Virus record (IMG/VR): IMGVR_UViG_2693429549_000020
Span: 1-9,017 of that record
Source: a virus
Taxonomy: Duplodnaviria; Heunggongvirae; Uroviricota; Caudoviricetes
DNA length: 9,017 nt
Strand: one strand, 5' to 3'
In this document: piece after piece, positions 2,497 to 3,530 of the stretch
How the letters are laid out: every line of letters starts with the position of its first letter
Position numbering within the stretch: the stretch's first letter is position 1
The notes under the pieces: model-generated
The model's input: the letters and a program-made list of their open reading frames with translations, nothing else
Databases searched by the model: none
Told to the model about the DNA's origin: nothing
Made by a program: the position numbers and the translations under genes

Positions 2497-2696
2497 TCTA
2501 ACCACCAACGATAGCGAAAGTATCGAGGTAGCTATGTTAAATCATACCACACACCCGCAAGGGCGGGACTCGCACAACCTGAATAAAGCGGGTATGAAAA
2601 ACCAGTTGATCGCCACTGCCAGCCAGGGCTATGATTCGCGTGCACCTTATAAAACGGGTGCCGGGATTAGGACCCCGCTGGAGTTACAGGCGATAC

Positions 2697-2719
2697 AGAC
2701 GCCGCACGCGTCTTTTTTT
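2697..2719 (+). terminator. Intrinsic terminator / attenuator (module A)
   Basis: Stem AGACGC (2697-2702) / GCGTCT (2708-2713), loop CGCAC, followed by a T7 run (2713-2719). Confidence 0.6.
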
Positions 2720-2884
2720 GTATCGGCGCACACGCACACCTCAACAATGGTGGGCTGTATGGGGCCGACTTCGGTCGGGCTGGTTTCCTGTAACGCCAGT
2801 AGTCCTAACCCTGTACAGTCCACCGCCAGCGAGCTTAGGACCTCCGGCGGTGGGTATATCCCAACGTTACAGGAGGCTGCCAAC
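2720..2884 (+). ncRNA. Structured leader A with anti-SD segment (putative c4/CI-like regulatory RNA region)
   Basis: UUCG-loop hairpin CCGAC-TTCG-GTCGG (2765-2778). Conserved GCTGGTTTCC (2779-2788). Segment 2786-2795 TCCTGTAACG is perfectly complementary to 2865-2874 CGTTACAGGA, which overlaps the SD AGGAGG (2871-2876) of the downstream ORF. A partial third copy of the target, GTTACAGG, sits at 2683-2690. Exact RNA ends are unknown. Confidence 0.45.
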
Positions 2885-3073
2885 ATGGCTACTACCCCTA
2901 CCCTCGTACATTCTCAGACTGCCTTTATCTGGCGCTTTATTGCCTTTGGCGCGTCAGAACATCAAATCATCCACGTAACCGCCTGGACGGAACGCGAAGC
3001 GCGTAGCCGTTGCCCGTCTGGTTGTGTTGCTGTATTCGCTGCCCGTATTCGTCAGGGGTCACATCATGCTTAA
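2885..3073 (+). CDS. Small protein, Icd-like (host cell division inhibitor-like) family, copy 1
   Basis: ATG at 2885 with SD AGGAGG 8 nt upstream. 62-aa product MATTPTLVHSQTAFIWRFIAFGASEHQIIHVTAWTEREARSRCPSGCVAVFAARIRQGSHHA. It is a paralog of the 3360..3530 product (shared W-R-F core and ARIRQ..SHA C-terminus). The Icd-like assignment is from memory of how such small proteins are annotated in P4-like prophages. Confidence 0.6.
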   Translation: MATTPTLVHSQTAFIWRFIAFGASEHQIIHVTAWTEREARSRCPSGCVAVFAARIRQGSHHA

Positions 3074-3157
3074 AAACCGCTTGCACAAAATTATCACGAG
3101 GCTGTATTCTTCCTGTGTCGCCCACATGGCGACCGGGTTTAGCAGCCTGAATAAATT

Positions 3158-3194
3158 GGCGGACAGCCGCCCATATCCGATAAGCGGTTTTTTT
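3158..3194 (+). terminator. Hairpin(s) plus T7 run (module B terminator/attenuator-like)
   Basis: GGCGG-ACAG-CCGCC hairpin (3158-3171), then CCGC/GCGG pairing and a T7 run (3188-3194). The stem is weaker than in module A, but the T-run sits exactly 166 nt before the downstream start codon, the same as in module A. Confidence 0.4.
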
Positions 3195-3359
3195 GTGTCC
3201 GTAAACCTACCCATACCCGCATTATGGCGGGGCGTAACGGGGGAGCCTTTGCGCTCGCTGGTTTCCCAATTTGCCAGTCTGCTAACCCTGTTACGTCTCG
3301 CCACCCCGTTTAGCAGCGTAGTAGCGAGACTCCTTAACATTAAATTGGGAGCCTTTCAC
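3195..3359 (+). ncRNA. Structured leader B with anti-SD segment (paralog of leader A)
   Basis: Conserved GCTGGTTTCC (3257-3266). Segment 3264-3272 TCCCAATTT is perfectly complementary to 3342-3350 AAATTGGGA, which overlaps the SD GGGAG (3347-3351). A partial target copy AAATTGG sits at 3153-3159. Motifs GCCAGT and CTAACCCTGT are shared with leader A. Confidence 0.4.
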
Positions 3360-3530
3360 ATGGCTGTATTCACACGCCCTTACTTTGTCTGGCGCTTTAT
3401 GCAGTGCCACGGTAAAAACATCCGCCTTCACACCGTTACCGCCGCCAGTGAGCACGAAGCCCGTGCGCAACTGCCGCACACACACCTTATTTTTATTGCC
3501 CGTATTCGTCAGGAGGTGAGCCATGCATGA
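3360..3530 (+). CDS. Small protein, Icd-like family, copy 2
   Basis: ATG at 3360 with SD GGGAG 8 nt upstream. 56-aa product MAVFTRPYFVWRFMQCHGKNIRLHTVTAASEHEARAQLPHTHLIFIARIRQEVSHA. Stop TGA 3528-3530 overlaps the next gene start (ATGCATGA). Confidence 0.6.
   Translation: MAVFTRPYFVWRFMQCHGKNIRLHTVTAASEHEARAQLPHTHLIFIARIRQEVSHA

Follow-up and report, generated by a model that had tools for sequence, protein, structure and literature searches.

Organization of the two cassettes

The DNA analysed here is a stretch of 9,017 nucleotides (the window) that makes up positions 1 to 9,017 of the IMG/VR record IMGVR_UViG_2693429549_000020, a virus assigned to the Caudoviricetes. An exact match to its primase sequence places it in an island of approximately 10.5 kb, located between cspD and clpS on contig CXAR01000022.1 (GCA_001253635.1), whose flanks are 99.5% identical to E. 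coli. Upstream of the primase gene, and on the same strand, lie two modules, A and B, each composed of a leader, a structured antisense RNA and a small Icd-like open reading frame (ORF). Both modules are complete antisense-RNA immunity units of the C4/CI family, a known family that is represented here by new specificities. Six recognition sites were mapped in each of them: a' and b' within the antisense RNA, the targets a2 and b2 downstream of it, and the decoys a1 and b1 in the upstream leader.

Cassette A
2606-2635, plus strand: promoter-like site, TTGATC, 18-nt spacer, TATGAT, predicted start near 2642
2642-2718, plus strand: IsrK-like leader A, Rfam isrK 63.2 bits (threshold 50)
2667-2673, plus strand: decoy a1 of A, TTAGGAC, in a hairpin loop, from site mapping and folding
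2683-2690, plus strand: decoy b1 of A, GTTACAGG, a partial copy of the target
2697-2713 plus T7, plus strand: intrinsic terminator A, called by the terminator scan
2743-2830, plus strand: C4 antisense RNA A, Rfam C4 79.2 bits (threshold 45), own covariance model 82.5 bits
2786-2795, plus strand: b' of A, TCCTGTAACG, in a hairpin loop, exact reverse complement of 2865-2874
2802-2808, plus strand: a' of A, GTCCTAA, in the junction, complementary to a2 and a1
2835-2841, plus strand: target a2 of A, TTAGGAC, exact complement of a'
2865-2874, plus strand: target b2 of A, CGTTACAGGA, over the Shine-Dalgarno sequence AGGAGG, exact complement of b'
2885-3073, plus strand: Icd-like ORF A, 62 aa, NCBIfam NF033153 62.1 bits (cut-off 25)

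Cassette B
3081-3110, plus strand: possible promoter, TTGCAC, 18-nt spacer, TATTCT, predicted start near 3117, read by eye
3104-3194, plus strand: a1b1/IsrK-like leader B, Rfam c4-a1b1 42.7 bits (threshold 46.7), isrK 37.6 bits (threshold 50)
3139-3145, plus strand: decoy a1 of B, TTAGCAG, from site mapping
3153-3159, plus strand: decoy b1 of B, AAATTGG, a partial copy of the target
3220-3308, plus strand: C4 antisense RNA B, Rfam C4 74.0 bits (threshold 45), own covariance model 77.5 bits
3264-3272, plus strand: b' of B, TCCCAATTT, in a hairpin loop, exact reverse complement of 3342-3350
3279-3285, plus strand: a' of B, CTGCTAA, complementary to a2 and a1
3310-3316, plus strand: target a2 of B, TTAGCAG, exact complement of a'
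3342-3350, plus strand: target b2 of B, AAATTGGGA, over the Shine-Dalgarno sequence GGGAG, exact complement of b'
3360-3530, plus strand: Icd-like ORF B, 56 aa, NCBIfam NF033153 55.8 bits (cut-off 25)

A preliminary description of this region, made from the letters alone, had reported the perfect complementarity between b' and b2 in both modules, the gap of 69 nt that separates them in each, the motif GCTGGTTTCC before each b', and the partial target copies at 2683 and 3153. All of these were confirmed, and the motif was found only at 2779 and 3257, followed by b' each time. The two small ORFs, described there as Icd-like, indeed match the corresponding NCBIfam family. The hairpin and seven-T tract assigned to each module were recovered as a called terminator in A; leader B retains the T7 (3188-3194), but the hairpin preceding it is weak and was not called by the terminator scan. 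Recognition had been attributed to the b sites, correctly so, but a second set of sites (a', a2 and a1) had been missed, and recognition is in fact bipartite.

The promoter-like site of cassette A is the sole sigma-70 consensus match between 2200 and 3800 and lies just 5' of the start of the isrK model; phage F039, an Stx2 phage, carries TTGACT...TATATT at the matching position. In cassette B, the possible promoter can be aligned to the part of P7 that lies 5' of c4 and contains its promoter. At the other end of cassette B, the stop codon of the Icd-like ORF overlaps the start of the next ORF (ATGCATGA).

Family membership and folding of the antisense RNAs

The whole window was scanned with the Rfam models for C4 (RF01695), c4-a1b1 (RF03163) and isrK (RF01394), and a further covariance model was built from 58 homologues. 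In this covariance-model search, which the preliminary description had proposed, both antisense RNAs score well above the C4 threshold. When the same models are applied to P4, its CI RNA matches C4 with 74.9 bits and its seqA region matches isrK with 60.8 bits. The P1-c4 and P4-CI readings of the locus are therefore readings of a single family, and the regulatory logic of the P4 CI/P1 c4 type that had been suggested for the two modules is borne out.

Folding of the leaders, likewise proposed at the outset, returned the family structure in both copies. The minimum-energy and centroid folds each consist of a long outer stem that encloses a short hairpin and a second hairpin, with energies of -43.1 kcal/mol for C4-A (z = -4.2) and -45.2 kcal/mol for C4-B (z = -5.9). 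In the predicted folds of both copies, b' occupies a 10-nt loop and a' lies in the junction, so that both are unpaired. The two copies also share a 5' AU|GG(U/C)GGG motif, and both map onto the annotated 77-nt P7 c4 RNA. By this homology, mature C4-A is predicted to span about 2749-2831; mature C4-B is predicted to span about 3226-3306.

The 3' arm of the C4 outer stem can also re-pair with a downstream repeat of the 5' arm. In A, 2818-2825 (CCACCGCC) can pair with 2846-2853 (GGCGGTGG), and in B (3296-3329) UCUCGC can pair with GCGAGA. The re-paired hairpin displays a2 in its loop, a pattern that is visible in most of the family members listed.

This alternative pairing is what would be expected if the leaders acted only in cis, as attenuator-like alternative structures, and no stable trans-acting RNA were made. 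A possible cis role has been raised by Weinberg et al., and the work on IsrK showed alternative cis structures. An exclusively cis mode is nevertheless improbable: homologues of the two RNAs are stable products of processing (the annotation of P7 c4 gives a 77-nt RNA, STnc1160 has been observed in Salmonella, and C4-like small RNAs were seen in Acinetobacter RNA-seq), and both copies carry the 5' GG processing motif. Moreover, the cis and trans modes are not exclusive of one another.

A second alternative is that the region encodes protein, namely an 'ash family protein' and a long Icd-like gene, and that the complementarities are incidental. Long frames in phase with the icd ORFs do stay open across the two RNA regions (2474-3073 and 3024-3530), and the translation of 2630-2915 matches the Pfam family Phage_ASH (PF10554) with 47.9 bits. 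In relatives of the island, PGAP calls an 'ash family protein' over the matching RNA genes (5939-6397 in the relative L001, 3187-3555 in L144). Furthermore, among 72 cassettes, which are phylogenetically non-independent, the icd-phase frame stays open for at least 140 nt across the C4 gene in 58%, as compared with 36% and 26% for the other frames; this openness may reflect shared ancestry rather than selection.

The covariance-model scores and the compensatory changes described below, however, follow RNA pairing rules and not codon conservation. For translated module B no protein-family match was obtained, PGAP itself marks the ash genes as partial pseudogenes, and the 'cI protein' annotation of P4 is historical, its determinant matching the C4 RNA model. 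A protein-coding origin of the patterns is thus very improbable, and on the covariance-model and compensatory evidence it was rejected despite the Phage_ASH match. The Ash protein family looks like the translation of a conserved RNA locus.

Concerted changes at the antisense and target sites

The length of the complementary segments does not in itself set them apart. First-order Markov resamples of the 9-kb window contain a mean of 2.3 inverted repeats of 9 nt and 0.8 of 10 nt with gaps of 40-100 nt, and the window holds several other inverted repeats of 9-10 nt. Because repeats of this length are not rare in 9 kb, the case for pairing rests on their position, on the second set of sites, and on the comparison of cognate with non-cognate partners. 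With regard to position, the repeat links the conserved hairpin loop to the Shine-Dalgarno sequence in both modules. As for specificity, A and B differ in sequence at all six sites.

Comparison of partners was made across a sample of 134 loci with a conserved C4 core, drawn from GTDB genomes and IMG/VR, in which 135 C4 copies were located. The family-wide test was alignment-free and covered 83 non-redundant cassettes with 59 different b' and 32 different a' sequences. At least 6 of the 7 variable nucleotides of b' were complementary to the downstream region in 69% of cognate combinations, against 5.5% of non-cognate ones. The second set of sites gave a still sharper separation: a' matched a2 in 93% of cognate and 1.2% of non-cognate combinations, and a1 in 94% and 2.5%, respectively. 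For b' and b1, the corresponding values were 58% and 9%.

The five close homologues of cassette A, aligned as A3, allow the individual changes to be followed. In this alignment 97.6% of cells pair, and 11 of the 17 pairs change on both sides; none of 500 shuffles reached the observed values, and partners slid out of register paired in only 26-48% of cells. The decoys a1 and b1, when set against a' and b' in the cassette A homologues, showed the same compensation as a2 and b2. A particularly clear example is provided by E. coli CV839-06, whose backbone is otherwise near-identical to that of the window: relative to one another, the two differ by GG to CC in a1, CC to GG in a', and GG to CC in a2. 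Concerted changes at all six cassette A sites were also found in the relatives L001 and L003 and in an Stx2 phage.

Cassette B behaves in the same manner. Both L003 and another relative, L138, carry CTGTCAA/TTGACAG at all three a sites, and L138 is additionally changed at b1, b' and b2 (CCAGATG/CATCTGG). The preliminary description had named homologues devoid of compensatory changes as the outcome that would speak against it; concerted changes were instead found in the homologues of both A and B. Its argument that the pairing is selected and not a product of chance is therefore upheld, on the strength of the compensatory changes and the cognate/non-cognate controls and not of repeat length. 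Such covariation is a known hallmark of the C4 family and the basis of P1/P7 heteroimmunity, and it introduces no new principle.

The predicted duplex energies are consistent with two separate specificities: the cognate duplexes reach -31.7 and -22.8 kcal/mol, as compared with -13.5 and -18.3 kcal/mol for the cross pairs. Taken together, these observations make it probable that two complete and orthogonal cassettes, each equivalent to P1/P7 c4 and P4 CI, stand in series in the leader of the island's replication operon.

The island and its replication genes

The window opens with a tyrosine integrase gene and an AlpA gene, followed on the minus strand by a small ribbon-helix-helix (RHH)/HicB-like gene, all assigned from Pfam and NCBIfam scans. 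The same scans show that the cassettes are followed by a 75-aa ORF, which has no family match among them, and then by genes for DUF4222, a D5/P4-family primase, SSB, and a fusion of a ClpP-like prohead protease with the major capsid protein.

3523-5788, plus strand: downstream genes presumed to be under cassette control, from the Pfam/NCBIfam scans and gene order in relatives
3756-4043, plus strand: DUF4222
4040-5788, plus strand: D5/P4-family primase
6332-6754: SSB
7101-9017: ClpP-like prohead protease/major capsid fusion, NF045540, 905 bits

This gene order 3' of the cassettes is common to the relatives L001, L137, L138 and L144. The primase is a shorter D5_N/DUF5906 protein, and its TIGR01613 score of 106.7 bits narrowly misses the cut-off of 108.7. 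Neither the window ORFs nor the whole island yielded the P4 hallmark genes sid, psu, delta or epsilon in the family scans. Similarly, no ant1/ant2 antirepressor was found 3' of the Icd-like ORFs by the family scans of the window, the place being taken by DUF4222 and the primase.

Four members of the gene set of the phage-inducible chromosomal islands that form capsids (cf-PICIs) are present in the window, namely int, AlpA, the primase and the ClpP-protease/major-capsid fusion. The complete cf-PICI set also takes in a portal, a terminase and head-tail connectors. On the source contig, a single 93-aa ORF lies between the capsid fusion and clpS (L141, 13062-16562), and the island there contains no portal, terminase or connector genes, unlike L001, in which capsid, decoration and connector genes are present. 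The island thus looks like a reduced capsid-forming PICI-like element.

Number, exchange and rarity of the cassettes

Relatives of the island carry from zero to two cassettes. L137 is without one, its locus consisting of a promoter, a leader and an icd-like gene; in L138, cassette B comes after an icd-like gene; L144 has an A-type cassette only; and both A and B are present in the window and in L001, L003 and L010, with other A specificities in L001 and L003. A trace of the ancestral icd gene persists in the window itself:

2534-2587, plus strand: remnant of an ancestral icd-like gene, first 18 codons MLNHTTHPQGRDSHNLNK, identical to the 5' end of the intact L137 and L138 genes

Homology to these intact genes stops at 2587, after CTGAATAAA, where cassette A starts. 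The ORF of cassette A is chimeric, in that its 5' end resembles the icd of P1-like and Stx phages and its 3' end is held in common with icd1 of L138. Judged from these alignments, the break at 2587 and the L138-type 3' end of icd-A form the recombination scar of cassette insertion, and the cassettes have evidently been exchanged by recombination around the conserved icd sequence.

The backbones of the two cassettes have different closest relatives. Module A shares 86% identity with the annotated isrK/C4 unit of Stx2 phages, aligning with F039, and also resembles a second c4-icd unit of a P1-like phage. The stretch 3103-3292 of module B is about 80% identical to P7/P1 c4 over 190 nt.

These findings bear on the main rival explanation for the tandem, which is that it arose as an evolutionary by-product: C4-icd units would be traded among satellites and phages by recombination in the conserved icd coding sequence, and a phage-type cassette would have accreted upstream of the native one, leaving the two in series without any special logic. 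The graded series of same-backbone relatives described above, the icd remnant and the chimeric icd-A are all as such a history would leave them, as is the contrast between the Stx/P1-like phage backbone of A and that of B, which is closest to P7/P1 c4 and to satellites. On the other side, both cassettes are fully intact, each still possessing its six sites, a promoter-like site and a high model score; 17 complete E. coli genomes and several IMG/VR contigs retain the tandem, and such tandems have arisen independently in Pseudomonas and Acinetobacter. Accretion of this kind is possible, if not thought the likely origin. Both cassettes may in that event still work individually, and the explanation contradicts only the selection of a double lock and not a double lock as its consequence.

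The preliminary description had considered two such modules in series to be unusual. They are uncommon, as no more than 17 of 5,426 complete E. coli genomes cover 80% or more of the two-cassette region; they are not unique, since a same-strand neighbour within 1.2 kb accompanies 13 of the 74 C4 matches that have enough flanking sequence. Among these 13 are independent Pseudomonas tandems, which have spacings of 486, 597 and 1011 nt and a' sites that always differ, and an Acinetobacter array. A literature search on tandem c4/CI cassettes or satellite Icd-like genes returned nothing relevant, most of the primary P1/P4 papers being outside its reach. The tandem arrangement is thus uncommon and recurrent, and it is apparently undescribed. 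It is built of standard parts, and is itself the sole non-standard feature of the region.

Two multi-copy arrangements were also noted. In Acinetobacter sp. WC-141 (L027, 12466-13046), three or four C4-like RNAs stand head to tail and are followed by a canonical cassette; the C4-like copies share a' (CTGCTAA), and their loops are different or shortened. In the P1-like phage vB_EcoM-673R5 (L135, L143), c4 units that differ in specificity are found in two separate places, one as c4-icd-roi near pac/c1 and the other as c4-ant1.

Comparison with known systems

The closest counterpart of the cassettes is the immI locus of phages P1 and P7, with the order c4 antisense RNA, icd and ant1/2 (Citron & Schuster 1990). 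It belongs to the same RNA family and has the same three-helix fold, b' occupying a hairpin loop and a' the junction; as in the window, a2 and b2 lie downstream, b2 covering the ribosome binding site of a small icd(-like) ORF, and the decoys a1 and b1 are upstream. The annotated P7 c4-icd is colinear with module B, which shares its a' (CTGCTAA) and differs from it in b', and specificity changes between P1 and P7 are compensated at all sites, as they are here. However, icd is followed by a translationally coupled antirepressor gene, ant, in P1/P7 (ant1/2 in P7), whereas here it is followed by DUF4222, the primase and SSB, and a single cassette on a plasmid prophage contrasts with two in tandem on a small integrated island. 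The C1 operator of P1/P7 is without counterpart; a different repeat, GTGGTCACCT in two copies, lies beside the small RHH gene.

In the satellite phage P4, the CI RNA (seqB), together with seqA and seqC, controls the left (alpha primase) operon, and Rho-dependent termination takes place at timm. P4 has the same RNA family and the same a1b1-C4-a2b2 order, and the likeness extends to the position of the cassette upstream of a P4/D5-type primase, on the same strand, in an integrase-bearing satellite. The differences are that P4 has one cassette, that eta/kil ORFs follow it in place of the NF033153 Icd-like ORFs seen here, and that the island combines the lack of a detectable sid, psu, delta or epsilon with a shorter primase.

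A third comparison is offered by the IsrK locus of Gifsy-1 (PMC4825925), since leader A scores above the isrK threshold, possesses a terminator and has a C4-like RNA directly downstream. In the Gifsy-1 order IsrK-STnc1160/orf45-anrP, two transcript forms arise at the terminator, one short and one by read-through (Hershko-Shalev et al. 2016, PMC4825925). Translation of the small ORF downstream is activated by the short a1b1 RNA, and coupling extends this to the next gene (PMC4825925). Gifsy-1 differs in being a single unit, in which the C4 region was interpreted as orf45 plus STnc1160 (PMC4825925), and in its output, which in this lambdoid prophage comprises a Q-like antiterminator and an antirepressor-like protein, as opposed to a replication operon.

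Finally, several C4-family RNAs with different a' and b' have been described from a single genome of A. baumannii, and they are processed from longer transcripts at GG(W) (Weiss et al. 2016, PMC5320573). The Acinetobacter arrays consist of packed RNA genes with no intervening icd-like ORF or complete target sets, in contrast to the full cassettes present here.

The comparison with phages raises the question of where the two RNAs act. They might work mainly in trans, providing dual hetero-immunity by silencing the icd/ant-type operons of two classes of co-resident or incoming phage or of rival satellite, or serving as sensors of such elements through a1b1 decoys, with the gating of their own operon secondary. 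In P1/P7, c4 does define superinfection immunity. The specificity classes of C4 are combinatorial, and different elements have them in common, a' of cassette A being that of the Stx2 phage F039 and a' of cassette B that of P7. Potential partners are also common, since C4/IsrK modules occur in 1,702 of the 5,426 complete E. coli genomes. Conversely, b' differs from those of F039 and P7 at most variable positions, and a few mismatches suffice for P1/P7 heteroimmunity; each C4 RNA has perfect cognate targets in cis. No partner with the exact specificity of A, at an identity of at least 95% over core plus targets, was found in the 5,426 complete E. coli genomes, where the best match reached 94.3% and had a different a', and none was found in the phage collection, where identity was at most 87%. 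A predominantly trans function is accordingly regarded as unlikely, though not strongly so.

Proposed mechanism and the serial arrangement

By analogy with P1, P4 and Gifsy-1 IsrK, each C4 RNA would be cut from read-through transcripts by RNase P and would then pair with a2 and b2, blocking translation of the Icd-like ORF. The untranslated RNA would be terminated early through Rho-dependent polarity, again by analogy, and the primase operon would remain silent. Surplus a1b1 leader RNA would titrate C4 and thereby open the lock. In its present form, this scheme amounts to textbook P1/P4 biology used two times over.

Given the orthogonality of A and B, the operon would stand behind two independent locks, and such a serial double lock is plausible. 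Decoy B lies downstream of icd-A, in the transcript controlled by lock A. Opening A could for this reason lead to more transcripts of decoy B, by which the signal might be passed on to lock B, which is the most speculative step of the scheme. An external RNA of the IsrK type, for instance from an induced helper prophage with A specificity, might thus open A, whereupon read-through would titrate C4-B; in such a two-key arrangement, a given lock would yield only to a decoy (a1b1/IsrK-type) RNA whose specificity matches its own. It is rather doubtful that selection has made the tandem into a serial RNA lock of this two-key type, with a relay, on the replication operon of a satellite. As for its function more generally, the tandem may serve dual immunity or stepwise control, as proposed in the preliminary description.

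Several observations weigh against this interpretation of the two cassettes. Relatives with zero or one cassette function, and two locks are therefore not required. In cassette B, the scores of the leader lie just below threshold on both Rfam models and its terminator hairpin is weak, and its promoter, like the one proposed at 2386-2437 for the whole operon (below), was read by eye and was not called by the consensus scan. In the unconstrained duplex calculation, a' of B shows an appreciable predicted affinity for target A, and orthogonality therefore rests mainly on b'. Lastly, in the published Gifsy-1 model the a1b1 RNA acts on the cis structure of the long transcript and not by simple titration of C4, which means that the order of events may differ from that outlined above. 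With respect to leader B, the a1 and b1 sites are exact, the leader is colinear with the a1b1 region of P7, and its sites co-vary in L003 and L138.

Were the two-key relay to hold, the specificity classes of these antisense RNAs would be a means of recognition between satellites and helpers, and the locus would offer a simple model of how satellites could time replication with RNA alone by sharing specificity classes with their helpers. At the level of annotation, two RNA genes together with their decoys and targets are unannotated in this record, and in relatives the RNA genes are annotated wrongly, either as a pseudogene of an 'ash family protein' or as an Icd-like gene of excessive length. 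The C4/CI cassettes furthermore behave as swappable units, with zero, one or two per related satellite, each possessing a private, fully compensated six-site code.

Putative upstream control region and minor observations

5' of the cassettes, a further promoter may control the operon as a whole:

2386-2437, plus strand: putative operator-controlled upstream promoter, TTGACA at 2386-2391, weak -10, two copies of GTGGTCACCT, read by eye

The two copies of GTGGTCACCT, at 2393-2402 and 2428-2437, are arranged around the TTGACA hexamer, and the site is divergent from the RHH/HicB-like gene (2201-2392, minus strand). L137 and L138 have an equivalent layout with other repeat sequences (GGGCCACACCT twice in L137, GTGTTYAACAC in L138), which adjoin different YlcI/YnfO-type genes. 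The pair in the window is probably a repressor-operator pair controlling the whole operon.

At the junction of the two cassettes, the 11-nt segment AAAAACCGCTT (3072-3082), which lies at the icd-A stop and 5' of the presumed transcription start of B, is perfectly complementary to AAGCGGTTTTT (3182-3192), that is, to terminator B's 3' arm together with its U-tract. Both segments would be carried by transcripts reading through from cassette A, and not by those from the B promoter. Since only the former would hold both, 3072-3082 is a candidate anti-terminator. The complement is kept without sequence variation in all close B-type relatives; it is confined to these, being absent from P7 and the wider family, and is thus not a family-wide anti-terminator.

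A second structure is found on the minus strand at 2462-2498, where a 15-bp G+C-rich hairpin followed by GCTTTTTT resembles a terminator facing the RHH gene. On the plus strand, the hairpin sits in the leader, between the operator region and the icd remnant. Because L138 has a hairpin at this position with a different stem sequence, the structure is suggested to be functional.

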